A DNA stretch of 64,000 nt from contig CAZNJI010000004.1 in assembly GCA_964573395.1 (NCBI GenBank), positions 27,379 through 91,378 of the forward strand. Reading direction: 5' to 3'. Positions 265 through 54,735 of the stretch are shown here, one piece after another; position 1 is the stretch's first letter; each line of letters opens with the position of its first letter. The position numbers and the translations under genes are program-made. Origin of the DNA: an uncultured Candidatus Saccharibacteria bacterium (GTDB lineage Bacteria; Patescibacteriota; Minisyncoccia; Phycocordibacterales; UBA9973). The notes beneath the pieces are model-generated. The model saw nothing but the letters and a program-made list of their open reading frames with translations. It did no database searches and was not told the DNA's origin.

Positions 265-783
265 ATGCAATTACAAATGAAAAACACCGTACAACTGTGG
301 CCCGAAAGGCTATTTTTTAATCTCTCTCATCTCGCTTGTGATCAAGCATATCTAGAAAGAGTTGAGGTAGTTCCGTATCTCGTGCAAATGCTTCCAGTTG
401 CAATTGGCAAAGGCGATCAAAGAGGTGAAATGTGCATTGGTCTTCATACAGACTATTACACCACCACGTTCATTCTCTTTAACTCACCTTATCCGTATCG
501 TGAAAAACAGGCAAAGTCGCCCGTTATTCTAACAATAACCGGAGGGAGCGTAATAGGACCTCTTGATAATCAAGAGTATAAAAATTTGGTTTATTTTTCC
601 ACGGAAGCCCCGAAGCTGAAATTGAAGCCAGGAAGCTACTACTCAACAATGATTGCGCGGATATACCAAGAGTATGAAGCTCTGAGTCAAAGCATGAAGT
701 TAACTGAAACCAAGATTATTCCTATTGATCAGGTTCAAAAACTTCGGCCATTAGTTGGTGCAAATACGATTGGTGCGTATTAA
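265..783 (+). CDS. Hypothetical protein (172 aa)
   Basis: Clean ORF with its own terminator; no motif recognised. Confidence 0.5.
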   Translation: MQLQMKNTVQLWPERLFFNLSHLACDQAYLERVEVVPYLVQMLPVAIGKGDQRGEMCIGLHTDYYTTTFILFNSPYPYREKQAKSPVILTITGGSVIGPLDNQEYKNLVYFSTEAPKLKLKPGSYYSTMIARIYQEYEALSQSMKLTETKIIPIDQVQKLRPLVGANTIGAY

Positions 784-7670: not shown

Positions 7671-8273
7671 ATGAAATTCATTGTAGGAACAAAATCACAT
7701 ATGACCCAGCTGTTCAACGATAACGGAACGGTTATTCCAGTTACCGTGGTAAAAGCGGGTCCAATTACCGTTACCAAGGTAAAAACGGCCGATTCAGACG
7801 GCTACAGCGCCGTGCAGGTTGGTTTCGGAGACCAGAAAGAGTCTCGATCGAACAAGCCTACCCTTGGTTCTTTGGGCGGCAAGGCATACCAATTAGTGCA
7901 AGAATTCCGGGTGGATAATCCAACCGTTGCGGCAGGAGATACCATTGATGCGTCTGTTTTCTCTGAAGGAGACACCGTAACCGTTACTGGCACCTCAAAA
8001 TCAAAAGGGTTCCAGGGGGTAGTGAAGCGCCATGGGTTTGCTGGCGGTCCGCGCACGCACGGCCAGAAACACTCAGAGCGAGAACCAGGATCCATCGGCG
8101 GCGGACTTCGAACGCGCGTGCCAAAAGGAATGCGCATGGCAGGCCGCACTGGCGGGGATACGATAACGGTAAAACACCTTTCAATTGTTGCGGTTGATGC
8201 CGAAAAAGGAGAGCTCTACATTAAGGGGGCAGTGCCTGGTCGACGAGGAACATTTGTTAGCATTGTCGGATAA
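7671..8273 (+). CDS. rplC: 50S ribosomal protein L3
   Basis: MKFIVGTKSHMTQLFNDNGTVIPVTVV... is a typical L3 N-terminus. Confidence 0.95.
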   Translation: MKFIVGTKSHMTQLFNDNGTVIPVTVVKAGPITVTKVKTADSDGYSAVQVGFGDQKESRSNKPTLGSLGGKAYQLVQEFRVDNPTVAAGDTIDASVFSEGDTVTVTGTSKSKGFQGVVKRHGFAGGPRTHGQKHSEREPGSIGGGLRTRVPKGMRMAGRTGGDTITVKHLSIVAVDAEKGELYIKGAVPGRRGTFVSIVG

Positions 8274-31559: not shown

Positions 31560-31944
31560 TGGTGGAGATGGGGGGAATTGAACCCCCGTGCAATAGGGAA
31601 TGACATACAAATCTCCGTGCGCAGCACAACTTGGGCGTTTAAGCGATGCACGAACAAGTCGTGCAAACTGTGCATTGCCGATCCTTTACGTTGTCGTTTT
31701 GCTCTTAAGGAAAAGAGCAGAATCTATTCTGATGTTCTTACACCTCTACCTTTCTATCAGAAATTGAAAGGAGAGACGCCAGCTTGGCTTACGCGAAAGC
31801 TGGAGCGAAGGCCTTACCGAAGTAAGGAGACTTCACCTTAGCGACACTGTTGCCAGATATCGTGTGAACGAAGGTTGCGGGATTACGTCCGTACCCGGCA
31901 CGCATGCATGTCTAATTCTTCTATTGTCGATGCCGATCATCCCC
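31560..31944 (-). ncRNA. ssrA: tmRNA (SsrA), about 385 nt, with encoded CCA
   Basis: Minus-strand 5' end GGGGAUGAUCGGCAUCGAC resembles the tmRNA consensus GGGGCUGAUUCUGGAUUCGAC. The 3' end is GGGGGUUCAAUUCCCCC-CAUCUCC-ACCA, a T-arm plus acceptor pairing with the 5' GGGGAUG, with a G3:U wobble. The internal ORF GCU AAG GUG ... GCG UAA predicts the tag AKVKSPYFGKAFAPAFA. smpB lies just upstream. Confidence 0.85.
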
Positions 31945-32293: not shown

Positions 32294-32731
32294 TTACGCA
32301 TATTCGCGCCGCAGTTCGCGGTCGAGGTCGCGTTTTTTGATTCTGTCGCGTTTGTCAAAGCGCTTCTTTCCGCGAACAATGGCCACTCGGGCCTTAATTC
32401 GCTTGCCTTTGGTATACAGCGAAACAACGACTGCTGTCAAACCTTTTTCTTTCATTCTTCCAGAAATATCAAGCAGTTCTTTTTTATGGAGCAACAGCTT
32501 TCGGGAACGGTACGGGTCGAAGTCTTCTTTGGTATTCCCAGGCTGATGCGGGGGTATGTGGGCGCCAAGTAAAAACAGTTCGCCCGAAAGGAGGGCAACA
32601 TAGGAACCGTCGAGGCTGCCTTTGTGCGTTCGAATCGATTTCGTTTCGGTGCCCAAAAGCTCAATCCCTGCTTCGTAGGTCTCAAGGATTTCATACTCAA
32701 ACGAAACTTTTTTGTTCGACAAAAGCGTCAT
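32294..32731 (-). CDS. smpB: SsrA-binding protein SmpB
   Basis: YEILETYEAGIELLGTEVKSIR...GSYV...LLGAHIPPH...RKLLLHKKEL motifs. Confidence 0.92.
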   Translation of the reverse strand: MTLLSNKKVSFEYEILETYEAGIELLGTETKSIRTHKGSLDGSYVALLSGELFLLGAHIPPHQPGNTKEDFDPYRSRKLLLHKKELLDISGRMKEKGLTAVVVSLYTKGKRIKARVAIVRGKKRFDKRDRIKKRDLDRELRREYA

Positions 32732-38576: not shown

Positions 38577-38644
38577 ATATAAAGTAAAACATGAAGTTGT
38601 GAATTATTCCAACCTTGGCTAGAATCAGTGTCAGTTCTTTCGAT

Positions 38645-38718
38645 GGGAGTATAGCTCAGTTGGTTAGAGCATCGAGCTTATACCTCGAGGGTCGATGGTT
38701 CGAGTCCATCTACTCCCA
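38645..38718 (+). tRNA. tRNA-Ile with anticodon UAU (reads AUA); CCA not encoded
   Basis: Cloverleaf folded by hand. Acceptor GGGAGTA/TACTCCC; D-stem GCTC/GAGC. Anticodon stem TCGAG/CTCGA with loop CTTATAC, so anticodon TAT. T-arm GATGG-TTCGAGT-CCATC. Discriminator A. Confidence 0.8.
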
Positions 38719-38829
38719 CCCGTTTGGATGCATTATCTGAAGGCTTACCTGACCTTTATCCACAAGCAGGATTCTGGCATCTGGTTTCTCTGTGGACTTT
38801 CGTATCTCTACTGCGATACAATAAAGGGC

Positions 38830-41800
38830 ATGAACAAATATATAGGGGCACTATTATCAGCAGGTTTTTTCTTGTTAATCATTGGTTTCGGCGTCGTTCC
38901 AGCTCACGCGCAAACAACTACGCCTTTTACTACTAATCTCTCGATCGGCTCAACCGGCCCCGAAGTACTCAAGCTGCAGCAGTGGCTCAATGCAAACGGC
39001 TTCGTTGTTGCCCAATCCGGGCCTGGTTCTCCTGGGAACGAAACAAGCAGCTACGGACGGGCAACTGCGAATGCGGTGCTGAAATTCCAAGAAGCGCACT
39101 TCTCGCAGATTCTTGCCCCGCTTGGCATCTCAAAAGGAACTGGCAGATTTGCCGCCGCAACCAGAAACTACCTGAATTCTCTTTTGGGAGGAATGGTGTT
39201 AGGGGAAACAACTGAATCGTTCCTGGCATCTGCCGGCACTCCTGCAGGAATTGAAGACAATACCTCTTCGTTGGAGATCGGCATGAAGTTCACTCCGAAT
39301 GTTTCTGGAAAGATTACCGGCGTTCGCTTCTATAAAGCGTCAAACAACTACGGCACGCACACCGGAACGCTCTGGGGTTCGAACGGCTCGCGCCTTGCTA
39401 CTGGTACCTTTACCAACGAAACGAGCTCTGGCTGGCAAACCCTTACCTTCGATGCTCCTGTTTCTGTTACTGCCGGCACAACGTACACTGCCTCGTACTT
39501 TGCGCCACAGGGAAGATACTCGTTTACCTGTAACTACTTCACTTCTCCTCGAACCGTGGGTAATATTTCTACTCCAACATCTGCCGGCGTTTACCGATAC
39601 GGATCATCCTCTGCATTTCCAAGCCAGACCTTTAATTACTGCAACTACTGGGTAGACGTGGTTTTTGTAACCGGATCAACTGATCCGGCTCCTACGCCAA
39701 CACCTACCCCGACACCAACACCTACTCCAACTCCGACACCTTCAGGAACGGTATCTCTGTGGTCAAATAGCACCACGCCAACGCTCGTTACCGACATTCA
39801 GGCATACCCGGTTGAACTCGGAATAAAATTCAGCACTACCGTTCCGGGAACGATTACCGGCATTAAATACTATAAAGGTCCGCAGAATACCGGCACTCAC
39901 ACCGGAACGCTCTGGAGCAGTAATGGATCAAAACTTGCAAGCGTCACGTTCACGAACGAAACCAGCTCGGGCTGGCAGACGGCGCTCTTCTCGAATCCGG
40001 TATCAATTCAGGCAAACACGACATATGTCGCTTCCTACTTTACCCCGGTCGGATTCTTCTCAGTTGACATGAATTATTTCACCGCTTCCCGATCGTTTAA
40101 TACCTACTTCAATACTTCGGTTGGAGCTGGCGTATTTAAATACGGATCCGCAGGTTTCCCAACCACGACCCTCTATTCTAATTACTGGGTAGACGTGCTC
40201 TTCGTGCCAAGCACTGGCGGAACAACTCCACCTCCACCACCTCCGCCAAGTAATGACACCAGTTCTCCAACCGTTTCATTGACTGCTCCGGGAAACCGAT
40301 CGACGGTAAGCAACACGGTTACCGTTTCAGCGAGCGCCTCTGACAATGTGGGGGTTGCCGGCGTACAGTTCCGAGTGGATGGCAACAATATTGGTGGAGA
40401 AGATACGGTTGCACCGTACGTAATAGATTGGGATACCCGAAGCATTGCGAATGGACGGCATTACCTAACCGCGGTTGCGCGCGATGCAGCAGGAAATACC
40501 CGAACCTCAAGCCAGCGCCGCGTTACGGTAAGTAACACCACCACGACTCCTCCATCTAGTGATACGACTGCACCAACCGTTTCAATTACCGCTCCGGCAA
40601 ATGGCGCAACAGTTTCTGGAACGACTACCGTTTCAGCGAGCGCCTCTGATAATATGGGCGTAGTAGGCGTACAGTTCAAGTTAAATGGTACGAACCTCGG
40701 CCTTGAAGACACCAGTTCGCCATACTCAACTTCATGGAACACGACCGGTGCGGCAAACGGAACTTATACCCTTACCGCAACTGCGCGCGATGCGGCAGGA
40801 AATACCAGAACGACAAGTGCTGTTTCGATTACCGTGAATAACGTTGTGACGCCGCCAGCTGACACAACCAATCCAAGCGTCTCATTTTCTGCTCCAGCAA
40901 GCGGTGCAACGGTAAGCCTTGCGACTACCGTCTCGGCAAACGCTTCCGACAATGTCGGTGTTGCGAGCGTCCAGTTCTTGGTTGATGGCGTTAGTATCGG
41001 AGAAGACACTACTGCGCCATATTCAGTTTCATGGATTACCACGACAACTACGAATGGCTCGCATACCCTTTCGGCAATTGCTCGCGATGCGGCAGGAAAC
41101 ACCGCAACCGCAACTCGATCGGTAACGGTTAACAATGCAACTGCTTCGAACGATACGACTCCGCCGGTCGTTACCATGCTAACGCCGATTAATAACAGCA
41201 CCGTATCGGGTACTGCTCTCGTTACCGCTTCGGCAACCGATAACATTGGCGTGGTAGGCGTACAGTTCAAACTAAACGGCCAGAATCTTGGTTCTGAAGA
41301 CACTACGCTTCCATATGAATACTCATGGAACACCAGCGACTATGCGAATGGTTCATACACGCTTACCGCAACCGCTCGCGATGCGGCAGGAAACACGAGA
41401 ACAGCGCCTGGATTCGGAATCAACGTATCGAACGGAACTGTACCGCCGCCAACCGGAGGGAGCAGTTTTACCTTTACCCAAATTCCTTACTCAGATCCTG
41501 ACATCATCGCGCCAGGACGCGGAGCGGAACAGTGGCACAATAGTACTGCGCGAATTCCGAATCCAACCGAGAGCCAATCACGAACAACCGAGAACTCGCT
41601 TGACGTGTACTACCGATTCGAATGGGCAAGAATTGAAGGGGCAACCCAAGGTTCATACAACTGGACGTACTTCGATAACTTAATACGAGGTGCAATTAAC
41701 AACGGACAGAAATTCTCGTTCGGTATCATGACTCACTACAGCGACGGCGGATATGTTTCATATGACGGTGGTACCTCTTCTTATCCACAGTATCTGCACA

Positions 41801-42924
41801 ACATGATGCAAGCTGAGAGTCCGAAAGATTGGCGCAGCTCTAACGGCGTGTGGGTGCCAAACTGGAATAGTCCAAGCTACCTCAACCGATTAAGAGCGCT
41901 GCACGAAGCACTCTATGCACACATCATGAATACCTCTTACACTCCTACGACAGGACCGCGTGCAGGACAAAGCATTCCATTCAAAGATGCTATCTATGCA
42001 ATCGATATCCGCGGATTCGGTAACTGGGGCGAATGGCACACCGGAGACATCGTTGACTGGAATGCACACCCAGCAGGAACCGCGCCAACTATCGCAACAC
42101 TCAAAACGATTATCGATCACCACACACAAGTATTTAAAGATTGGCCGCTTGTATTCATGGTTGCTGGCTATGATGGTGGTGCTACTGGCATTTCACTCTT
42201 CCCTCCATACCCAGAAGTTGCGTACTATGCGCTTACGGCAAAGAACGCCTGGGGTGACGTTGGATTCCGCCGCGACCAATGGGGTGCAACTGACAGCTAC
42301 CTCCATACGCTCATGGCAGGAAACAATAAAACATACAATGGATCAGTGCCATTTAAGACACTCATTCTCAACAAGTACAAGACGGCACCGATTACTGGCG
42401 AGCCGATGCCTGCAAGCCTCGACATGGCTGACCTTGAAAACCAGGTAAATACCTACCATGCTACCTCGTTTGGAAATGGAAACTACGGAGCATACCCAAG
42501 TTCACAAACAACACGAGACAGAATTCGAGCAGCGTTCAAACGGGCTGGATACCGACTGATCCTTGAAGGAGGAAGCGTTGGAAACATCAGTCGCGGTTCG
42601 GCATTTTCGATCAGCTTAGACTGGAAAAACGTTGGAATTGCGCCAACATACGAAAACTGGGTTCCGACGTACGAGCTGAAGAATTCAAGCGGTACCGTTG
42701 TTTGGTCAGGAACTTCAAGCTTTAATCCGAAACTCTTCCTTCCGGAAAGCGGCACGAAGAAGGTAACGGACAGCTTCGTTGTTCCAACATCAGTACCGGC
42801 AGGAACCTATACGCTTTCGTTGAAAGTGAAGGATCCAGCAAACTACCGCCAGCCGCTTCCGCTCGCTATCCAGGGAAGACAGTCTGATGGAAGCTACGTC
42901 TTGAAGAGCGTAACCGTGCAGTAG
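38830..42924 (+). CDS. Large secreted multi-domain surface protein (1364 aa): PG-binding domain, two paralogous beta domains, PT linker, five Ig-like repeats, C-terminal glycoside-hydrolase-like domain
   Basis: Signal peptide MNKYIGALLSAGFFLLIIGFGVVPAHA. PG_binding_1-like segment (GSTGPEVLKLQQWLNANGF...ATANAVLKFQ). Two homologous ~150-aa domains (GVRFYKASNNYGTHTGTLW / GIKYYKGPQNTGTHTGTLW). (PT)n linker. Five ~100-aa repeats (SASASDNVGV.GVQF..DG...G.EDT..PY...W.T....NG.H.L.A.ARDAAGNT). C-terminal region with NWGEWH. Confidence 0.7.
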   Translation: MNKYIGALLSAGFFLLIIGFGVVPAHAQTTTPFTTNLSIGSTGPEVLKLQQWLNANGFVVAQSGPGSPGNETSSYGRATANAVLKFQEAHFSQILAPLGISKGTGRFAAATRNYLNSLLGGMVLGETTESFLASAGTPAGIEDNTSSLEIGMKFTPNVSGKITGVRFYKASNNYGTHTGTLWGSNGSRLATGTFTNETSSGWQTLTFDAPVSVTAGTTYTASYFAPQGRYSFTCNYFTSPRTVGNISTPTSAGVYRYGSSSAFPSQTFNYCNYWVDVVFVTGSTDPAPTPTPTPTPTPTPTPTPSGTVSLWSNSTTPTLVTDIQAYPVELGIKFSTTVPGTITGIKYYKGPQNTGTHTGTLWSSNGSKLASVTFTNETSSGWQTALFSNPVSIQANTTYVASYFTPVGFFSVDMNYFTASRSFNTYFNTSVGAGVFKYGSAGFPTTTLYSNYWVDVLFVPSTGGTTPPPPPPPSNDTSSPTVSLTAPGNRSTVSNTVTVSASASDNVGVAGVQFRVDGNNIGGEDTVAPYVIDWDTRSIANGRHYLTAVARDAAGNTRTSSQRRVTVSNTTTTPPSSDTTAPTVSITAPANGATVSGTTTVSASASDNMGVVGVQFKLNGTNLGLEDTSSPYSTSWNTTGAANGTYTLTATARDAAGNTRTTSAVSITVNNVVTPPADTTNPSVSFSAPASGATVSLATTVSANASDNVGVASVQFLVDGVSIGEDTTAPYSVSWITTTTTNGSHTLSAIARDAAGNTATATRSVTVNNATASNDTTPPVVTMLTPINNSTVSGTALVTASATDNIGVVGVQFKLNGQNLGSEDTTLPYEYSWNTSDYANGSYTLTATARDAAGNTRTAPGFGINVSNGTVPPPTGGSSFTFTQIPYSDPDIIAPGRGAEQWHNSTARIPNPTESQSRTTENSLDVYYRFEWARIEGATQGSYNWTYFDNLIRGAINNGQKFSFGIMTHYSDGGYVSYDGGTSSYPQYLHNMMQAESPKDWRSSNGVWVPNWNSPSYLNRLRALHEALYAHIMNTSYTPTTGPRAGQSIPFKDAIYAIDIRGFGNWGEWHTGDIVDWNAHPAGTAPTIATLKTIIDHHTQVFKDWPLVFMVAGYDGGATGISLFPPYPEVAYYALTAKNAWGDVGFRRDQWGATDSYLHTLMAGNNKTYNGSVPFKTLILNKYKTAPITGEPMPASLDMADLENQVNTYHATSFGNGNYGAYPSSQTTRDRIRAAFKRAGYRLILEGGSVGNISRGSAFSISLDWKNVGIAPTYENWVPTYELKNSSGTVVWSGTSSFNPKLFLPESGTKKVTDSFVVPTSVPAGTYTLSLKVKDPANYRQPLPLAIQGRQSDGSYVLKSVTVQ
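40255..41440 (+). repeat. Five tandem ~300-bp coding repeats (Ig-like domain array) inside the 1364-aa gene
   Basis: Repeated protein motif seen five times; the DNA repeats are diverged. Confidence 0.7.
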
Positions 42925-46912: not shown

Positions 46913-47392
46913 TTAGCAGGTGCACACGCCTTTGATGCAATCACATCCTGGTTTGCAGTTGCACTTCTCGCCATGGATGGAGCAGACGCCGTTTTTGCAG
47001 TCAGCGCAGTGCGCTCCGCCGTGCCTGCAGGCGTGGCAGCTGCACCAGCTTGATCGAAGGTATGAACCAACCCATACCAGGAAGAGGGCACCGCCGGCAA
47101 TCAGGCCGCTCATGCCAAGCATTAATTCAACTGCCACTGCGCCGCCAAGGACGCTGCTTGCAGCAAGAATGGCAAAGCGGTGCGTTTTAGGAATCCAGAG
47201 GAGGACGGTAAGAAGTATTTCAACGACGCCGAGCGCTACGCGGTATTGATCGATGCCGAGTGATTGAAACAGAATTGTTTCCTGGGAAGCGCCTGAAATT
47301 TTCCCGAAGCCGTTAATGAAGAGTAGAAGCGTGGGAAGTGCCAATACTATGCTGCCAATGATTTTTTTTGCCGAATGGGTGCCTAATGTCAT
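46913..47392 (-). CDS. DoxX-family membrane protein fused to a Cys-rich metallothionein-like tail
   Basis: Four TM helices. C-terminal CSCHACRHGGAHCADCKNGVCSIHGEKCNCKPGCDCIKGVCTC carries 14 Cys in 42 aa. Confidence 0.6.
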   Translation of the reverse strand: MTLGTHSAKKIIGSIVLALPTLLLFINGFGKISGASQETILFQSLGIDQYRVALGVVEILLTVLLWIPKTHRFAILAASSVLGGAVAVELMLGMSGLIAGGALFLVWVGSYLRSSWCSCHACRHGGAHCADCKNGVCSIHGEKCNCKPGCDCIKGVCTC

Positions 47393-47491
47393 GCGAATAT
47401 ATGTAATTGATAGATAATGACTTATTGTAGCATTTTCGGCAGTCGATAGAAAAAAGCGCTTTTTTATGTTAGAGTTTGCCGGAATATATAT

Positions 47492-47581
47492 GGAGACGTG
47501 GCTGAGCTGGTCGAAAGCGCCTCACTGCTAACGAGGTAAGCCCGTTAAACGGCTTCGAGGGTTCGAATCCCTCCGTCTCCG
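47492..47581 (+). tRNA. tRNA-Ser(GCU) with a long variable arm; CCA not encoded
   Basis: Acceptor GGAGACG/CGTCTCC; D-arm GCTG-AGCTGGTCGAA-AGCG; anticodon loop CTGCTAA, so anticodon GCT; variable arm TAAGCCCGTTAAACGGCTTC; T-arm GAGGG-TTCGAAT-CCCTC; discriminator G. Confidence 0.85.
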
Positions 47582-48006
47582 CAAAGTCTTGAGCGAAGTG
47601 AAAGCTTTGCAGAGACGAGCAAAACAGGGTTTTGCGTGGGGGATTCGAACGACGGAGGCAATTGAGTATTCAAGAGAATACGAAGCCGAGTCGGTGCCCA
47701 GACTAACATTTTCGGGCGAGAAAATTTAAGTCGCGGGCGAATCCTCCGTCTCCGCCAACCCCCGACCCCCATGTTGGACACCTTCGATTTCCAACGCTAT
47801 CGCTGCCTTCCACCACAGGGGTTGGCGACAATCGCACAATGAGGCGCGATTGCGGAGACGGTGACATACTTGAGTATGTCACGGGAGGGATTCGAAAAGC
47901 GCAGCGATGTTTTGCGAGCCAGCAAAACCGCGAGCTGGGGTCGAGAAATTTTAAGAGCGACGGCGAATAAAATATTCGTGACCGAATATTCCCCCGTCTC
48001 CGCCAG
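47582..48006. repeat. Array of direct and inverted copies of the tRNA-Ser 3' end (att-scar-like repeats)
   Basis: Direct copies GGCGAATCCTCCGTCTCCGCCA at 47737-47758 and CGAATATTCCCCCGTCTCCGCCA at 47983-48006, each preceded by CGAGAAA(A)TTT(T)AAG. Minus-strand copy at 47855-47903, where GCGGAGACGG-TGACATACTTGAGTATGTCAC-GGGAGGGATTCGAA reverse-complements to the T-loop and acceptor end with a 22-bp palindrome inserted. Scrambled inverted fragment TGGGGGATTCGAACGACGGAGG at 47637-47660. Confidence 0.8.
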
Positions 48007-48084
48007 TACAGATTTCTTGACATTAGTTTTTATATATGATACAAAAATATTGAAAAAGCTTTTTCTAAAATTAAATTTTTAATT

Positions 48085-48306
48085 ATGCAAAAAAAGACGA
48101 ACACCCGTTTTAAAGACAATGATTTCAAGAAAGGAACGGGTAGTGACGGTAAGCCCTTTTGCTGTGTAATGGTCGCTCGTGATAAAGATGGAGTGGCTGT
48201 TCGTGACAGTAAGGATTCGAAAAAAAACACCCTTCACTTTAATAACAAGGAATGGGAAGTTTTTCTTCAAGCCATCAAGGATGGAGAATTTGAAGTAGTG
48301 AAATAA
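48085..48306 (+). CDS. DUF397-domain protein (73 aa)
   Basis: FKKGTGSDGKPFCCVMVARDKDGVAVRDSKDSKKNTLHFNNKEWEVFLQAIKDGEFE matches the DUF397 signature (..RDSKDP....L.F...EW.AF...VK.GEFD). This is a family mostly known from actinomycetes. Confidence 0.65.
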   Translation: MQKKTNTRFKDNDFKKGTGSDGKPFCCVMVARDKDGVAVRDSKDSKKNTLHFNNKEWEVFLQAIKDGEFEVVK

Positions 48307-48361
48307 TTTCTGATTTTAGAAAGTAGTTAATCACTACTTTCTTTTTTATTAAAAAAATATT

Positions 48362-48859
48362 ATGCATCAAAAAGATAAAAAACTTTATATTATTCCAGGA
48401 TACCGAGAATCTACTAGGAAAAAACCCTATAGACAGATAGCAGCCCTTGGGTTAAAGAAAAAATATAAAATCATTAAGATAAATCCAAAATGGAACGTAT
48501 CGTTAGTATCACAAATCGTTCCTGTGGGTAAGAATGATGTTATTTTTGGTTTTTCTCTCGGGGGTATTCTTGCTCTTTTGATTGCTCAAAAATTTGCTTG
48601 TAAAAAAGTAATACTTGCTTCTGCTACTACGCATAAATGTGCTAATGATTTAAAAACATTTCTACCTGCTGATATCATAAAAGATATTAGAAAAACAAAG
48701 AAAAATGTTGCAAGTAAGGTAATTAGGTTCTATGGAGAGTTCGAACGAGAGGATGCAATAAAATACTTACCGGAAGGTGCTTCTATACAGAAATTTATTT
48801 CAAAAACTGAGCACAATCTATCCGAGGCTTATATTGATGCTATTGATAAGGTACTTTAA
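48362..48859 (+). CDS. Small alpha/beta-fold serine hydrolase (RBBP9/YdeN-like esterase)
   Basis: Nucleophile elbow VIFGFSLGGILAL is a GxSxG motif; ~165 aa; very AT-rich gene. Confidence 0.5.
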   Translation: MHQKDKKLYIIPGYRESTRKKPYRQIAALGLKKKYKIIKINPKWNVSLVSQIVPVGKNDVIFGFSLGGILALLIAQKFACKKVILASATTHKCANDLKTFLPADIIKDIRKTKKNVASKVIRFYGEFEREDAIKYLPEGASIQKFISKTEHNLSEAYIDAIDKVL

Positions 48860-48996
48860 AAATTCTGAAAATAAATTTAACTTCGTACATATAGAGTCAA
48901 TAGTAAAAACTACCCATCTCTAATAAAAAATACTCGTTTGATTTCACACATAAAAAATCAAAAAAATCAGGGAAATATACTATACTATAAGGAACC

Positions 48997-51900
48997 ATGA
49001 GACGAATCCGCTCCGGCATATTTCGGCGTTACCGAATGACCATTCTCGGTTTGCTTGGAGCATTCCTTTTTTCGGCCATCATCTCATTTGCCGCTCCACC
49101 CAGCTCACCATACACTCCCGGAGAAACGCTTGATCCAACCTGTGCGCCGGGAGACGCGAATTGTTACGTTGAAAGTTCAAGCGGAGATTCTTTTTATACC
49201 GATGATGGCGCGCTAACTGGAAACAGAGCAATCGATTTAGATGGCAACACACTTAGTTTTACTGGCGGAACGGTTTTAATCGGCGGAACACCAACGTTTT
49301 CCGGCTTCTCAACAAATGGCGGGCTCCTTTATACAAACGGCTCCGGCGTCGTCTCACAAACAGGCGCAGGCACTGCCAACCAAGTGCTCCACGGCGGAAT
49401 CAATCCGACATACTCAGCAGTCTCGCTTTCTGCTGATGTTTCTGGTGATCTGCCGTTTGCAAACCTCGCCCAGATTACCGGCCTTTCAGTATTAGGTGTT
49501 ACCGGAACCAGCACCGCTGATGTTGCGGCAATTACCGGTACGGCAAATCAGGTGCTTCGCATTAATGCAGGCGGAACAGCGCTTGGTTTTGGCACGATAG
49601 CAAATGCAGGGCTTGCAAACTCCTCAATTAGTTTCGCGACCGGAACTTCAGGTACTAACGTGAACTGGTCTTCATCTCCCGTTTCTCTGGGCGGAACGGC
49701 AACCTTAAATATCCCCGATGCTAGTGCTTCGGCGCGAGGCTTGGTAACAACAACCGGCACGCAAACCTTTGCTGGAGACAAAATCTTTACCAGTGAAGTG
49801 GCAGTTGGCACCGATTTGGTAGACGGCCGATTCCAAGTAAGTTCTGCGGAGGGAAATTACCTGCGCATAGACAACGACAACGGAATTTACGGAATAGGAG
49901 ATCTCAGCGGCCTCTATAATGGCAGTTACTTTCAGATTGATGATGCTAATCACGAGATAGACCTTTGGGTTACCGGAGAAGTAACTGAAAATAATTTTGA
50001 AATTGGTGATGGGTATGGAGGTTTTTCTAGCTACTATCAAAATGGAACCGTAACAGCATCAAGCGAGTATTATTTGGAGGCACTTGGCGGAATTACTATT
50101 AGTTATGATTATGAAGATACGAATACAACTCAAGTTATAGATTCCGGCCTCCGTTTTGATGGAAATTTTATTGAGCTAAAAACAGAAGAAAATTATGATA
50201 ACGGAGCCGAAGTATCTTATGCTGGTCTTATGCTCAATCAAGCTTGGGCAGAGCTTGGTGCAAGTTATGAATTTAATAATTACGACTATGATGCAACGAT
50301 CCAAACCTCAAATGGTGGTACCGAGCTCTATTCTTCTCGAGAGTACAATGGAGAAACTGAAGCATTTTCAGAACTGAGCCTCAGACCTGATATTTCAGAA
50401 ATGATAACTCCTCGGTTAGGTATTGTGGGCACCTATGCCTATAACGACACGCTTCCGTTTCAAGACGCTCAGGTTGCAATTCTTGGCGGATTGGGGCCGG
50501 AAGAGATTACGAACGGCACTTTCACCGGCAATGCCAATGGATGGGTAACGGGAGGAGATGACGATACGCTTCCTTCTGATAACTGGGCGTATGGCACCAA
50601 TAATGCACAGCATACTCCCGGGGAAGATGTTGTTCTTCGCCAAGATGGTGAGCTGGTATACGGAGAAACATATAAAGCTCAATTTACTATTGGCGGCACA
50701 ACCGGTTGGGTACAGGTATGTTTGGGTGAGAACGGCGACTGTGCAGAGTTTGATGCAGGAGACGGTTCGGTAACTTTTACGGGAAGTTGGGAGGCGCTGA
50801 CCAGCAGTAAGATACTTTTTTACCCATCATCCGATTTCGACGGCACGATCGACAATGTGTCGGTAAAGCGCGTGTTCTCTAACCGGCATGCTGCGCTTGA
50901 TGTGCAAGGGAAAACCAACCTGCAGAATTTGGCGATATCAGGCACCGCCCTTGGCGATTTATATGGTGCCGAATTGATAACGAACGGAACCTTTACGGCT
51001 AATACAGATGGCTGGCAAACGGAAGATCCAGGGGGCGGTAATCCGGAAGCGCTTGATTCAAAAGGTTGGGCATATGATAACCGGGGATGGGTTGAATTTG
51101 ATTCGGGTACGCAACAATCAAATTACCTGACCCAAGTCATAGATTTGACTGAAGGCGCCCAATACCGTGTTTCGATAAAGGTACAAGATGGAGACGGAAG
51201 AGTATACGTAGCGCTTGGAGGGGATAATGATGCAAATTATATCGAGCTTAGTGGAGAGAGTGGTATTACTACTGTAACGCTTACTGCTGGCGCGGGTGAT
51301 TTTCTCTGGATTGTTCCTGACACGGACAATAACGGCGATTGGTTTAGTGGTTTTATTGATGAAGTATCCGTAAAAGAGGTTACCGGAGAAGCGGCGCTGA
51401 GTGTTACTGGCAACACCGTGCTACATAGTTTGGCCGGAAACGGGAGCGGTTTTGTTTCGGTTGATAACGATGGCGTGCTTTCGTGGAGTGCAGGCGGAGC
51501 CGGCGGGGTGGGGGGTAGCAATACGCAGCTGCAATTCAACGACGATGGCAACATGGCTGGCGCAACTGATGTTCTCTATAGTAAAGGAGCTTCCGGTAGT
51601 TCAGGCGATTCATTGGGCGACGAAGAAATAACTAATGGCTCTGTTACTGGAAATACAAATGGCTGGACGGCCATTAATGGCGACCCACTCCCAGCGAACA
51701 ACTGGTCTTATGGCAGTAACAACCTTAATTACGACCCAAACGGAGGAAACCCAGTTGCACAACTAGGAGAACTTGTGGAAGGAGCAACCTACAGAATTAC
51801 ATTTACAGTAACTGGAACTGCTGGAACAATAAGCGTAAGACTCGATGGTGACATTGATGCTGAATATGCTTATAACGCCGGCACAGTAACACTAGATAAA

Positions 51901-54735
51901 ATCTATGGATTCGATAACGGTACGAAAATTGTTTTTTCTCCATCAAATGATTTTGATGGAAATCTTGATGATATCTCAGTAAAAAGAGTTAATCTTGAAG
52001 AGGGTGCAGAGCAAATTACGAATGGCACCTTTACCGGCAATGCTGATGATTGGGAGTCGAATGGTAATCCGCTTCCTGACGGAAACTGGGCATATGGCAG
52101 TAATAATGTAGAGCACACCTCAGGTTCTATAGAACCTGTCTATCAATTCGGAAACTTGGTTGAAGGTGGAAGGTATATTGTTCGGTTTGATATTGGAGGA
52201 ACTACTGGAAGCGTTAATGCTTGTCTAGGCAACGGCGATTGTGAACAATTTGCTGCAGGCGATGGGTCAGTGGAATTTTTAGGTCACTGGCAAGATCTTT
52301 TTGGTATTTCAATCTATTTTGAACCAACTACTGATTTTGACGGCACGATTGACAATGTTTCAGTAAAACCAATTCTCTATGAGGAAGGCAGTGAAGAGTT
52401 AACGAACGGCACCTTTACTGGCAATGGGGATGATTGGGTCACAGATACTAATGATGTTCTTCCTTCAAATGATTGGGCCTATAGCAGTAACAATGTCGAG
52501 CATACTGCAGGTACTGCAGTTCGGTTTAGACAGGATGGAGAATTAACACAAGATGGTCACTATATCGCTCGGTTTAATATTGGAGGAACAACAGGAACGG
52601 TTGAGGCATGCTTGGGAGAGAACGGAGACTGCTTCGAAGTTAGTGCCGGAGACGGGGATGTAACATTTATTGGAACATGGAGAGCGATATTAAGCAGTAA
52701 AATATTATTTGATCCATCAAGTGATTTTGACGGTACCATCGATAATGTGTCAGTAAAAAGCATCACCTATTCTGCTAGTGAGACTACTACTACTAGCCAG
52801 GCAAAATTCGGCATCGGCTATACCGATATTGCAGAATTTACGAGCGCAAAAGTTTCAGTGAGCGGGCTTGGCGACGAAGAGTTGACGAATGGGAAGTTTA
52901 CCGGCAACGCAACTGGATGGGACCTCGGATCAAATTGGGATTATGACGATAACACTGTTGTGCACGACCCGGTTGGAGAGACTATTCTTTCTCAGGACGG
53001 AAGTTTAACTGATGATGTTACCTATCATGTCAGTTTTACAATGACAGGAACTGACGGGATAGTTACGGTTTATTTGGATGAAAGTGCTTCGTATACGTTC
53101 ACAGGAGATACCAATGGTACAACAAGAACGTTTTCATTTACGCATACTTATGACGATTCGAGTGCTCTCGATACAGAAATAATTGTATTTTTTCCCGATA
53201 GTGATTTTGACGGTACGATAGACAATGTCTCAATTCGGGAGGTTCTAAATTCAGATTCAATCAATGCAATCGGAAACATTGCTATTAAAGGAGAGTTAGA
53301 CGTAGAACATAGAGTTACCCAAGATGCTGATTTATACGGCGTGCGAAGCGAGGTATCTCTTAATGATACGGATAATGGAAGCTTGAATTATCAGTACGGA
53401 GGCTACTTTAGTGCCACAAGCTTGGGAGAAGTAGGTTCGTACGGCGTATACGCAGTATCGGAAACTGATGGCGAGATAAGCGTCGGCGTATACGGGCGAG
53501 GCGCACGCGGCGTTCATGCGGTATCAACGTCAGATGATGCCGGCGCGGCTCTGTACGCTGAATCAATCAATGGGCCAGTTTTATACGGAGAAACTGCAAG
53601 AGTGGCCGCAACAGGAGAAGTTTTTCCAGCATTGTATGTACAGAATACGGGAACGTTTGATACTACTGCAGAGGAACTTATTTCCTACGGTGCGGTTCTT
53701 GATACCACTACCACTCGATCTGCCGGTGCAAATGATTTAATTAATATCGGATTAGCGATTTCCGTGAGTGGAGGCCAGGAAAATTACGCGCTCATAACTA
53801 CTGGCGGTAATGTTGGTATTGGAAATAGTACTCCCAATGTGCTACTCCATGTGGGAGATGATTCAGTAACAGATTTCACTGATTTGCTTACCCTAGAAGA
53901 CGAAGACTCAATTTGTAGTTTCAATGCTGATTCTGGTTCGCCAACATGCGGATCTGATTTGACGCTGAAAAAAGACATCGAAAGCTTGAATACGGTCGAC
54001 ATCCTGATGAAAGTTTCGCTCTTGAACCCTGTGTCATATCGCTGGAAGACGGATGAAGAGGGCAAGCCAGTACAGTTCGGATTCATTGCCCAGGAAGTAG
54101 AAGAGCAGTTTCCGGAGCTGGTAACCGAACGCGAATGGATAGACGGCAGTACGAAAAAATTCCTCAACATTGGCGGGCTGATGCCATATGCGATCGGTGC
54201 CATAAAAGAGTTGAATTTGAAGGTAGCGAATATTGAAAATATTTCTGCGCCCGAAAACTCGTTCGCGGCGATATTGAAAGCGTGGTTTGCCGATGCGGCA
54301 AATGCGATTGAAGAATTCGTAGCAACGAGAATTAAAGCTCGCGAAACATTCTGCATCAATGAAACCTGTTTGACTGAAACGGAATTGAAAGCACTGCTTG
54401 AAAATGCCGGTATTGCAATTCCGCCGCCGGCAGTTACTGAATCGGAAAATAACGAAGCACCTGAAGAAGAAATGCCCGAACCTACGCCGAGCGAGACAGA
54501 AACTGAAACCGAAGACCTTGTGTCTCCAGTAGAAAATCCGCCTACCGAAGAACCAATAGAAGAAGAGTTATCTGACGGGCCAGTCGAAGAGTCTGGCACT
54601 CCTCTGGAGCAACCGGTGGAGGAATATACAGAAGATACGCCAACTCCTCCAGAGAATTCTCCTGAACCAGAACCAGGTGAACAAGAAGAAAGTAATTCTG
54701 GAGAGACGCCAGCAGTTCCTCCGGCTACTCCGTAA
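48997..54735 (+). CDS. Giant surface protein (1912 aa): N-terminal TM anchor, Gly/Thr-rich fibre-like region, six tandem ~125-aa beta-sandwich modules, C-terminal S74-type intramolecular chaperone domain, acidic Pro/Glu-rich tail
   Basis: N-terminal TM helix. Six modules with the pattern EE.TNG.FTGN..GW...........W.Y......H.........Q.G.L......Y...F...GTTG.V..CLG.NGDC..F.AGDG.V.F.G.W........I.F.PS.DFDGTIDNVSVK. C-terminal LTLKKDIESLNTVDILMKVSLLNPVSYRWKTDEEGKPVQFGFIAQEVEEQFPELV matches the peptidase-S74 chaperone domain of phage tail fibres. Confidence 0.75.
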   Translation: MRRIRSGIFRRYRMTILGLLGAFLFSAIISFAAPPSSPYTPGETLDPTCAPGDANCYVESSSGDSFYTDDGALTGNRAIDLDGNTLSFTGGTVLIGGTPTFSGFSTNGGLLYTNGSGVVSQTGAGTANQVLHGGINPTYSAVSLSADVSGDLPFANLAQITGLSVLGVTGTSTADVAAITGTANQVLRINAGGTALGFGTIANAGLANSSISFATGTSGTNVNWSSSPVSLGGTATLNIPDASASARGLVTTTGTQTFAGDKIFTSEVAVGTDLVDGRFQVSSAEGNYLRIDNDNGIYGIGDLSGLYNGSYFQIDDANHEIDLWVTGEVTENNFEIGDGYGGFSSYYQNGTVTASSEYYLEALGGITISYDYEDTNTTQVIDSGLRFDGNFIELKTEENYDNGAEVSYAGLMLNQAWAELGASYEFNNYDYDATIQTSNGGTELYSSREYNGETEAFSELSLRPDISEMITPRLGIVGTYAYNDTLPFQDAQVAILGGLGPEEITNGTFTGNANGWVTGGDDDTLPSDNWAYGTNNAQHTPGEDVVLRQDGELVYGETYKAQFTIGGTTGWVQVCLGENGDCAEFDAGDGSVTFTGSWEALTSSKILFYPSSDFDGTIDNVSVKRVFSNRHAALDVQGKTNLQNLAISGTALGDLYGAELITNGTFTANTDGWQTEDPGGGNPEALDSKGWAYDNRGWVEFDSGTQQSNYLTQVIDLTEGAQYRVSIKVQDGDGRVYVALGGDNDANYIELSGESGITTVTLTAGAGDFLWIVPDTDNNGDWFSGFIDEVSVKEVTGEAALSVTGNTVLHSLAGNGSGFVSVDNDGVLSWSAGGAGGVGGSNTQLQFNDDGNMAGATDVLYSKGASGSSGDSLGDEEITNGSVTGNTNGWTAINGDPLPANNWSYGSNNLNYDPNGGNPVAQLGELVEGATYRITFTVTGTAGTISVRLDGDIDAEYAYNAGTVTLDKIYGFDNGTKIVFSPSNDFDGNLDDISVKRVNLEEGAEQITNGTFTGNADDWESNGNPLPDGNWAYGSNNVEHTSGSIEPVYQFGNLVEGGRYIVRFDIGGTTGSVNACLGNGDCEQFAAGDGSVEFLGHWQDLFGISIYFEPTTDFDGTIDNVSVKPILYEEGSEELTNGTFTGNGDDWVTDTNDVLPSNDWAYSSNNVEHTAGTAVRFRQDGELTQDGHYIARFNIGGTTGTVEACLGENGDCFEVSAGDGDVTFIGTWRAILSSKILFDPSSDFDGTIDNVSVKSITYSASETTTTSQAKFGIGYTDIAEFTSAKVSVSGLGDEELTNGKFTGNATGWDLGSNWDYDDNTVVHDPVGETILSQDGSLTDDVTYHVSFTMTGTDGIVTVYLDESASYTFTGDTNGTTRTFSFTHTYDDSSALDTEIIVFFPDSDFDGTIDNVSIREVLNSDSINAIGNIAIKGELDVEHRVTQDADLYGVRSEVSLNDTDNGSLNYQYGGYFSATSLGEVGSYGVYAVSETDGEISVGVYGRGARGVHAVSTSDDAGAALYAESINGPVLYGETARVAATGEVFPALYVQNTGTFDTTAEELISYGAVLDTTTTRSAGANDLINIGLAISVSGGQENYALITTGGNVGIGNSTPNVLLHVGDDSVTDFTDLLTLEDEDSICSFNADSGSPTCGSDLTLKKDIESLNTVDILMKVSLLNPVSYRWKTDEEGKPVQFGFIAQEVEEQFPELVTEREWIDGSTKKFLNIGGLMPYAIGAIKELNLKVANIENISAPENSFAAILKAWFADAANAIEEFVATRIKARETFCINETCLTETELKALLENAGIAIPPPAVTESENNEAPEEEMPEPTPSETETETEDLVSPVENPPTEEPIEEELSDGPVEESGTPLEQPVEEYTEDTPTPPENSPEPEPGEQEESNSGETPAVPPATP
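50500..53245 (+). repeat. Six tandem ~375-bp coding repeats (putative carbohydrate-binding beta-sandwich modules) inside the giant gene
   Basis: The EE(I/L)TNGTFTGN...DFDGTIDNVSVK unit recurs six times. Confidence 0.75.

Follow-up and report, generated by a model that had tools for sequence, protein, structure and literature searches.

Two tandem structured elements behind tRNA-Ser(GCU) in a Patescibacteria genome, probable members of a dispersed family trailing tRNA genes

The stretch of DNA analyzed here, 64,000 nucleotides in total and referred to as the window, originates from an uncultured Candidatus Saccharibacteria bacterium (GenBank assembly GCA_964573395.1, contig CAZNJI010000004.1, positions 27,379 to 91,378). 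On its plus strand, a tRNA-Ser(GCU) gene at 47492-47582 is followed by several direct and inverted copies of its own 3' end, which form the subject of this analysis. The tRNA gene was called by ARAGORN and matched the Rfam tRNA model with 56.7 bits. Its T loop is located at 47562-47568, the 3' strand of the T stem at 47569-47573, the 3' strand of the acceptor stem (CGTCTCC) at 47574-47580, and the discriminator G at 47581. The sequence following the discriminator is CAAAG, which means that CCA is not encoded. Two direct copies of the 3' end, CCTCCGTCTCCGCCAA at 47743-47758 and CCCCCGTCTCCGCCAG at 47991-48006, both read ...CCGTCTCCGCCA. Both end in G-CCA, whereas the gene ends in G-CAA, as a first-pass annotation of this DNA had already stated. 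When up to two mismatches were allowed, the 13-mer TCCGTCTCCGCCA from the end of the tRNA gene occurred six times in the window compared to 1.3 expected occurrences, a number reached by none of 100 shuffled sequences, and four of these six matches were inside 47572-48005. The similarity of the two direct copies was also correctly reported to extend upstream: a stretch of about 30 nt (GGNCGAGAAAWTTTAAG..GGCGAAT) preceding both of them had an alignment score of 29, with a maximum of 23 in the shuffles.

The minus-strand copy interrupted by a palindrome could be located as well. It is composed of TTGCGGAGACGG at 47850-47861, the exact reverse complement of the gene-type end CCGTCTCCGCAA, and GGAGGGATTCGAA at 47884-47896, the exact reverse complement of TTCGAATCCCTCC, and both pieces are separated by a 20-nt palindrome at 47862-47881. 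A scrambled inverted fragment that had been proposed at 47637-47660 was only in part what it seemed to be. The sequence GGGGGATTCGAAC at 47638-47650 does correspond to the T loop and T stem of tRNA-Ser in reverse complement, but GACGGAGG, the acceptor-like part, is the start of a core that is conserved as CGRCGGAG across 40 loci, and its resemblance to the acceptor strand is therefore coincidental. The region from about 47554 to 48100 was base-for-base identical in two independent Logan assemblies, so the array is not an assembly artifact. The Logan contigs L001 and L002 end at about position 47537 of the window, so that two short-read assemblies break inside tRNA-Ser, which suggests that assembly is disturbed by the repetition of the tRNA 3' end in its copies.

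The inverted and direct copies are the two arms of one element, and the palindrome is its P2 hairpin. The inverted copies are not a by-product but pair with the direct copies and close the element. Two such units are present, unit A at 47605-47757, which starts 23 nt past tRNA-Ser, and unit B at 47850-48005, which comes after it; the sizes of the inserts at this locus are 173 and 248 bp. In each unit, the inverted pieces are complementary to the direct copy that follows. All parts of both units are on the plus strand. The 5' arm of unit A begins with CTTTGCAGAGACG at 47605-47617, which agrees in 12 of 13 positions with the reverse complement of the gene-type end CGTCTCCGCAAAG and, as judged from sequence and fold, may pair either with the 3' end of tRNA-Ser itself or with the direct copy at 47745-47755. 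The predicted hairpin P2 (GCAAAAC AGG GTTTTGC) at 47619-47635 is located between this anti-acceptor part and the anti-T-loop/T-stem part, GGGGGATTCGAAC at 47638-47650, which pairs with CGAATCCTCC at 47738-47747 to form helix P3. Hairpins of differing sequence occupy the P2 position in the 39 other loci. The core of unit A has the order CGACGGAG, hairpin P4, CGAGTCGGTGCCCAGAC, hairpin P5, AGTCGCGGGCGAA, forming a three-way junction, and in the 3' arm, CGAATCCTCCGTCTCCGCCA at 47738-47757, the stretch of the tRNA that begins with the T loop and extends through the discriminator is repeated in direct orientation, with CCA added at its end.

Unit B is built from the 5' arm part TTGCGGAGACGG at 47850-47861, predicted to pair with 47994-48003, the hairpin P2 (TGACATAC TTGA GTATGTCA) at 47862-47881, which is the inserted palindrome mentioned above, the anti-T-stem/T-loop sequence CGGGAGGGATTCGAA with a diverged core, the helices of which are kept through compensatory changes, and the 3' arm CGAATATTCCCCCGTCTCCGCCA at 47983-48005, a direct copy of the 3' segment of the tRNA that ends with CCA. 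In the outer pairing, GCAGAGACG is opposite to CGUCUCCGC in unit A and GCGGAGACGG is opposite to CCGUCUCCGC in unit B; in the inner pairing, GGGGGAUUCG of unit A is opposite to CGAAUCCUCC, and unit B has the equivalent T-stem/T-loop pairing. Both units carry P2 at the meeting point of the acceptor and T-stem parts of the 5' arm and two more hairpins at the apex. They have little sequence in common but share the same architecture, with z-scores of the RNA folds of -4.9 for unit A and -6.1 for unit B. The 92-nt spacer between them (47758-47849, plus strand) is also structured, with a z-score of -3.5. It shares CCCGACCCMCATG..TTGGAC only with locus L050, the unit of which has the same tRNA-Ser arms, and could represent either a further module or a tRNA copy in decay.

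Metagenomes were searched with the pattern GGATTCGAACGRCGGAG-N(20-50)-CCCAGAC, the stretch conserved between unit A and the related locus L026, and 39 contigs matched. A covariance model, R1, was built from 40 cores, with 113 positions and 19 base pairs; unit A was part of the seed but unit B was not. The model yielded 44 matches with at least 54 bits, including A, B, and second copies on the contigs L048, L052, and L060. Unit A matched at 47635-47749 with 94.6 bits (E value of 4e-25), and unit B at 47882-47994 with 55.3 bits (E value of 4e-12 to 9e-15) over the full length of 1 to 113. Units were positioned 0 to 100 nt downstream of 33 tRNA genes identified by ARAGORN, always on the same strand. 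These genes represent 13 anticodons and 11 amino acids, namely, Ser-GCU, Ser-GGA, Ser-CGA, Ala, Gln, Lys, Val, Pro, Gly, Asn, Tyr, Trp, and Ile-GAU. At locus L055, the order is 16S 3' end, tRNA-Ile, tRNA-Ala, and unit, which places this unit inside the 16S-23S spacer of an rRNA operon. The elements are noncoding, about 150 to 170 nt long, and share the core CGRCGGAG, hairpin P4, CGAGYCGGUGCCCAGAC, hairpin P5, AGUCGMGGGMGAA. Units A and B can be assigned to this tRNA-trailing family with high confidence. The generic dispersed repeat that would have refuted the first-pass annotation is thereby found in half: the family is dispersed, but it is tied specifically to tRNA 3' ends.

Searches in other collections did not yield an existing name for the element. 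In Rfam 15, only the tRNA was matched within 47350-48150 of the window at E values up to 10, and no family was matched by the units of six other loci at E values up to 1. Scans of viral contigs revealed no copies; 12 matches of a 17-mer were due to chance, and none of them fitted the model. When species-representative genomes were scanned with the motif common to both units (GAGAAAWTTTAAG..GGCGAAT), the matches were all due to chance and came from unrelated taxa, and a pattern combining both motifs had no match in the metagenomes. A literature search in the searchable library found no description of this element, with group I introns as the nearest topic (PMC13011429); in Patescibacteria, these reside in the anticodon loops of tRNAs and are unrelated to the element (PMC13011429). 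The family is apparently undescribed and specific to tRNA 3' ends in Patescibacteria, the CPR bacteria.

Two observations at other loci concern the diversity of such elements. At about 7830-7990 of locus L025, on the minus strand, an element behind a tRNA gene with the anticodon ACU ends in a copy of the 3' end of that tRNA and contains GGTTCGAACGG and TCGAGGGAGAG. It follows the same logic, although R1 gives no match to it, and it is probably a third, more distant subfamily. On the reverse strand of L047 (about 469-870 of the reversed locus), an apparent pseudo-tRNA-Ile upstream of tRNA-Ile(GAU) contains a B-type module (GGGGTCGAGA...CTCGTGACC) that separates its D arm from its anticodon arm. 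As a separate feature of this locus, a partial unit of the B type lies nested between the terminator of the tRNA and an A-type unit. Modules of the B type may thus insert at other positions of tRNAs.

A selected secondary structure on the tRNA strand is a highly likely feature of the family. In the R1 alignment, 96.4% of the cells were standard pairs compared to 82.4% in shuffles, and 13 of the 19 pairs changed on both sides. The covariation score was 0.378 versus 0.128 and was reached by none of 500 shuffles, with slid structures attaining at most 46%, for sequences that had been gathered by an exact pattern and then aligned to the model. An independent MAFFT alignment evaluated with RNAalifold gave 12 compensated pairs. 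In the helix CGRC/GYCG, for instance, the R/Y pair is A-U, G-C, and in one case C-G. Unit B, with much of the junction sequence changed, has retained the helices. There were 16 G-U but only 6 A-C pairs, and the tRNA-sense strand folded better in 42 of the 44 units. This indicates that the folded strand is the tRNA strand, either as RNA or as single-stranded DNA.

The sequence of the arms depends on the upstream tRNA. In an anchored test, the last 13 nt of a tRNA scored 10.65 of 13 against the 3' arm or flank of its own unit and 4.93 against noncognate flanks, while an unanchored version based on arm complementarity did not discriminate. Three bases of the anti-T-stem are informative; all three matched the own tRNA in 13 of 34 units and two of them in another 14, compared to 2.6% (three bases) and 17.9% (two bases) of the noncognate pairs. 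Units behind tRNA-Gly, which has the T loop TTCGATT, contain AATCGAAC...CGATTC in place of ATTCGAAC...CGAATC. Across the loci, the direct repeats are between 5 and more than 40 nt long, begin in the T loop, usually near position 57/58, and usually end at the 3' end of the tRNA. As a separate observation, terminator-like hairpins following tRNA genes (L062, 2838-2960, and the trailers in L037, L043, L048, and L052) have stems that often reach into the 3' strand of the acceptor. Such extended terminator stems are perfect hairpins of 20 to 27 bp and were found also without units.

In the 57 tRNA genes of L025 to L066 and the window, the discriminator is followed by CA in 41 cases and by CCA in 3. 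Encoding CA at this position looks like a habit of the entire lineage. A CCA is present after 8 of the full distal copies, which number about 24, and the two copies in the window are among these 8. This enrichment fits an RNA that needs a tRNA-like 3' end as well as an RNA-derived copy and does not allow a choice between the two. At L058, the trailer motif TTTAGTATCGGA... is positioned after the distal copy, and the same motif follows Ser tRNAs without units in L027 and L038. In the window, both 5' arms copy the gene-type GCAA and both distal copies have GCCA. The L058 trailer and this GCAA/GCCA pattern suggest that the distal copy is the original end of the tRNA. The trailer motif (TTTAGTATCGGAG...GAGTACC) was observed after different Ser tRNAs, at 8771-8781 of L027 and 2975-2985 of L038, both on the minus strand, and at 966-976 of L058.

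Homologues of RecG place the organism in the Patescibacteria (Nomurabacteria/Paceibacteria-like), with 60 to 68% identity to the closest relatives. Syntenic loci were identified via RecG in L025, L026, and L027, each with tRNA-Ser(GCU) beside a histidine kinase, a response regulator, and recG. One unit follows this tRNA in L026, where RecG is 65% identical; this unit is homologous to unit A with different hairpin sequences. No unit is present at this position in L027, compared to two in the window, and in L025 a second Ser-like tRNA is followed by an element with a 3' end copied from that second tRNA. The genes downstream of this tRNA differ in all four genomes. The cores are related across tRNA types, with identities of 0.92 between the Gly and Pro units of L048, 0.88 between Val and Trp, and 0.85 between Asn and Pro. 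The two L048 units are on one contig and have near-identical cores but entirely different arms. Decay was observed in the form of a truncated unit in L059 and of "solo" units with a decayed upstream tRNA end. This core relatedness together with the presence and absence among relatives makes it likely that the family has spread between tRNA genes. The second Ser-type tRNA-like gene has the odd anticodon ACU, adjoins tRNA-Ser(GCU) in relatives, and is absent from the window; it is located at 8009-8094 (minus strand) in L025, 37-124 in L028, 2995-3082 (minus strand) in L038, and 312-399 (minus strand) in L059.

With moderate confidence, 47605-48005 can be interpreted as two tandem, diverged members of a dispersed family of structured elements that trail tRNA genes, are probably cotranscribed with them, and have spread among them. 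The arms pair to yield a helix similar to an acceptor stem and T stem, capped by the three-way-junction core. The element would be transcribed together with the upstream tRNA, fold on the tRNA strand into a tRNA-like minihelix ending in discriminator and CCA, and then be released and finished by the enzymes of tRNA processing; the predicted folds of both units and the enrichment of encoded CCA are the observations relevant to such processing. The position of the L055 unit in an rRNA operon spacer likely counts for transcription of the units. Function as a cotranscribed, tRNA-mimicking RNA is a possibility that can be put forward only tentatively. With respect to the spread, we infer that the element inserts within the T loop or beside it, around position 57/58, and leaves the tRNA intact: the original 3' segment would stay as the distal direct copy, the proximal end would arrive with the unit, and adaptation of the inverted arm to the new tRNA would come later. 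Confidence in any particular mechanism of mobility is low. A further-reaching idea, considered rather doubtful, is a new class of element, a small structured RNA that re-targets itself: on moving to a new tRNA gene, it would take up the segment spanning T loop and CCA in both orientations and thereby mimic the cognate acceptor/T helix around a conserved catalytic or protein-binding junction. Such an RNA might move via an RNA or cDNA intermediate, as suggested by the CCA in the copies, or, in the genome-reduced Patescibacteria, it might provide tRNA-like punctuation or act as a decoy to enzymes directed at tRNAs. The element may be purely selfish or may serve the cell.

Several points weigh against an interpretation as a cotranscribed, spreading tRNA mimic. 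Units behind tRNA-Ser in L035, L038, and L056 have neither an anti-acceptor nor an anti-T-stem arm but only the direct copy, and those in L033, L037, and L043 retain only the T-stem part of the direct copy; the tRNA-like closing helix is therefore not universal. The tRNA-Gly in L062 has an anti-acceptor stretch in its own terminator stem without any unit there, and at many loci a terminator-like hairpin between tRNA and unit could stop read-through. Sampling the family with an exact pattern leads to an overestimation of the conservation of junction and core. A folded single strand of DNA would likewise be compatible with the G-T wobble pairs and the strand bias, and transcription, processing, and the tRNA-like 3' end are all inferred. 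No enzyme that could account for mobility was found in the 22- to 64-kb part of the window or close to the loci, and the re-fitting of the arms to a new tRNA would need an explanation of its own.

The first-pass annotation had regarded the locus as a hotspot of serial integration, with the copies being attR-like scars of an island repeatedly integrated and excised by an integrase and the AT-rich block downstream being a resident island. This proposal holds insofar as two insertions have occurred in tandem at the 3' end of a tRNA, each with duplication of the target. As in classical att sites of tRNA genes, the direct repeats cover the tRNA from its T loop onward to its end, units occur in tandem, the downstream gene content varies among relatives, and the block 48001-49000 has a GC content of 31% compared to about 48% in the window. 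The agent, however, was not an integrase-borne island. Both inserts belong, in complete form, to a family whose core shows covariation, and a single integrase lineage would not explain one core behind 13 isoacceptors. When the features of integration into tRNA genes are considered, a direct tRNA-3' repeat was found at both ends of the insert, but neither an integrase nor specificity for a single tRNA. A Pfam analysis of the open reading frames (ORFs) between 22 and 64 kb revealed no integrase, transposase, or reverse transcriptase in these 42 kb. The neighborhoods of the 41 loci contained no integrase, no transposase, and no shared protein family apart from the genes syntenic with tRNA-Ser, and the viral contigs harbored no copy. 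The T-loop part of the distal copies (GCGAAT or AGAAAT) differs from TTCGAAT of the tRNA, while an overlap region would require identity, and the AT-rich block at 48007-48990 is not flanked by a further copy of the tRNA end. Scars of such an island are a highly improbable explanation, which can be regarded as largely refuted. An element that acts only as DNA, with no role for an RNA, appears less remote but unlikely. It could be a miniature nonautonomous mobile element or a folded single-strand recombination site like integron attC or the attP hairpin of the CTX phage, the stem of which rebuilds the double-stranded segment from the T loop to the 3' end of the tRNA, moved in trans by a host or foreign recombinase or an HUH enzyme. 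Multiple copies present or absent among relatives, inverted terminal arms with flanking direct repeats, cores that cross tRNA types, and a stem structure kept while the stem sequence varies, as in attC sites, would all agree with it. The strand bias would be compatible, too, since the tRNA-sense strand serves as the template for lagging-strand synthesis at tRNA genes oriented in the direction of replication. A recombinase or R boxes of the attC type are, on the other hand, not associated with the units, the highly conserved junction nucleotides are typical of RNA tertiary cores, a unit is located in an rRNA spacer, and the CCA enriched at the 3' arm would not be needed by a DNA site.

The strong covariation, the maintenance of the units in very small genomes, and the tRNA-like closing helix with CCA could alternatively be attributed to a functional noncoding RNA that is inherited vertically with the tRNA gene and does not move but might regulate the cognate tRNA, act as a decoy, or mimic a tRNA as a signal for processing, with the match between arm and tRNA kept by selection or gene conversion. 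A unit at the same tRNA-Ser(GCU) in L026 and in L066 would be in agreement with this explanation, which is nevertheless judged to be quite unlikely. It has to account for the near-identical cores with wholly different arms on contig L048, nearest-neighbor cores that cross tRNA types, the absence of a unit at the syntenic tRNA in L027 and its doubling in the window, and the truncated and decayed copies. A retroelement similar to a short interspersed nuclear element (SINE) is the other explanation invoking RNA, and it is very unlikely. Here, the distal copy would be a cDNA of tRNA positions of about 58 to 76, including the posttranscriptionally added CCA, and either the RNA of the unit or the end of a mature tRNA would have been reverse transcribed. 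The frequency of CCA after distal copies compared to tRNA genes (8 of about 24 and 3 of 57, respectively) and the boundaries of the repeat, which usually begins near 57/58 and ends at the mature 3' end instead of an arbitrary position in the trailer, point in this direction. However, two-thirds of the distal copies have no CCA, several of them carry the trailer of the gene itself (L053, L036, L038), and the native-type trailer after the distal copy in L058 fits an origin at the DNA level. No reverse transcriptase was found in the covered part of the window or near the loci, and group II introns have been reported to be absent from Patescibacteria (PMC13011429).

Compared to known systems, the family shows both similarities and differences. 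Integrative elements of tRNA genes, with attL and attR sites of tyrosine integrases, and their decayed, cis-mobilizable tandem remnants likewise have an insert flanked by a direct repeat from the T loop to the tRNA end, leave the tRNA intact, and accumulate in tandem at one tRNA. Here, in contrast, the insert comprises about 150 nt without integrase or cargo, one family serves 13 isoacceptors, and the element contains, in addition, the target in inverted orientation and a three-way-junction core with covariation. Miniature inverted-repeat transposable elements (MITEs), REP/BIME, Correia, ERIC, and the palindromic elements of Rickettsia are small, noncoding, multicopy, intergenic sequences with stems formed by terminal inversions and are often cotranscribed. 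The units resemble these bacterial miniature repeats in being small, noncoding, multicopy, and intergenic and in the stable stem formed by terminal inverted sequences, but their terminal arms are copies of the adjacent tRNA, the target is a specific structural part of a tRNA gene, and the internal junction is conserved, in which they differ from a simple hairpin. We know of no parent insertion sequence for this tRNA-trailing family. Imperfect hairpins that recreate a double-stranded site in their stem, with one strand preferred, are known from the attC sites of integrons and the attP site of the CTX phage. As in these folded single-strand sites, the structure of the units is conserved while the stem sequence varies and one strand is preferred. 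In contrast to them, R''/R' boxes, an integron integrase, or a Xer/dif context are missing, the stem sequence originates from the tRNA target, and the apical junction is the conserved part.

Mimics of tRNAs comprise the tRNA-like domain of transfer-messenger RNA (tmRNA), the mascRNA of MALAT1, the t-elements of plant mitochondria, and the tRNA-like structures at viral 3' ends. Such modules have a coaxial helix similar to acceptor stem and T stem that ends in a discriminator, often with CCA, and RNase P or RNase Z could cut them from a longer transcript, as is also predicted here. The units differ by a duplex plus core in place of a T loop and elbow, by not matching the models for tRNA and tmRNA, and by a helix identity that changes with the neighboring tRNA. 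In archaea of the Thermoproteales, introns located inside tRNAs transpose among tRNA genes and are removed by the splicing endonuclease. Like the units, they are short, related, noncoding inserts across tRNA genes with complementarity to the flanking tRNA, but the units are bacterial and come after a tRNA that is itself intact.

Other candidate identities were rejected. A tRNA gene or pseudogene was called neither by ARAGORN nor by RF00005 over 47583-48006, and only the 3'-terminal 20 nt or so and their complement are derived from a tRNA. A tmRNA-like RNA, a Y-RNA-like RNA, a riboswitch, or a known self-cleaving ribozyme had no match in Rfam, and a hammerhead core CUGANGA was not visible by eye. 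An intron in the T loop of a split tRNA, considered for the "solo" loci, would need a tRNA body upstream, which was not present. For a guide similar to the bridge RNA of IS110 or the omega RNA of TnpB, a recombinase or TnpB is missing, and both arms cover the same segment and pair with each other. A MITE should have fixed terminal inverted repeats, but the arms vary per copy with the adjacent tRNA; no transposase was found at any locus, and target site duplications of a fixed length were absent. An integron attC site was dismissed since the core sites R''/R' (RYYYAAC...GTTRRRY) were absent, the ends of the stem are tRNA derived, and no integrase was found.

Patescibacteria account for a large part of the diversity of bacteria, and few mobile elements are known from their very small genomes. 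If the interpretation of the units as a dispersed, tRNA-trailing family is true, they would be either a new selfish element with target-templated ends or a new tRNA-linked RNA in the processing of tRNA and rRNA transcripts. The copying of the arms from the neighboring tRNA raises the mechanistic question of how inverted plus direct copies of a target arise. The units account for assembly breaks and for spurious signals of att sites and pseudo-tRNAs beside tRNA genes of CPR bacteria, and model R1 may be used as a marker for their annotation.

Some features in the neighborhood of the units should also be mentioned. The block at 48007-48990 with a GC content of 31% contains a 73-aa ORF with a DUF397 domain at 48085-48306 and a 165-aa ORF without a Pfam match at 48362-48859. 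On the other side of tRNA-Ser, a 159-aa ORF at 46913-47392 on the minus strand had no homologue in 5.8 billion proteins. A very large surface-type protein of 1,912 aa with a Peptidase_S74 chaperone domain and CshA repeats is encoded at 48997-54735 on the plus strand, and another one of 1,409 aa with DUF4082 and Ig-like repeats at 38695-42924, also on the plus strand. The listed start of the latter overlaps a tRNA-Ile gene, so the real start is probably further downstream. This tRNA-Ile(UAU) gene at 38644-38721 (plus strand) is syntenic in L026 (12841-12915), L027 (15109-15185), and L059 (5356-5430). The anticodon UAU is unusual, since AUA is usually read in bacteria by a lysidine-modified CAU tRNA. 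Finally, a tmRNA gene at 31560-31944 on the minus strand matched Rfam with 103 bits and was not called by ARAGORN; smpB adjoins it at 32294-32731 on the same strand. Unlike the two tRNA genes of the window, the tmRNA gene encodes its CCA.

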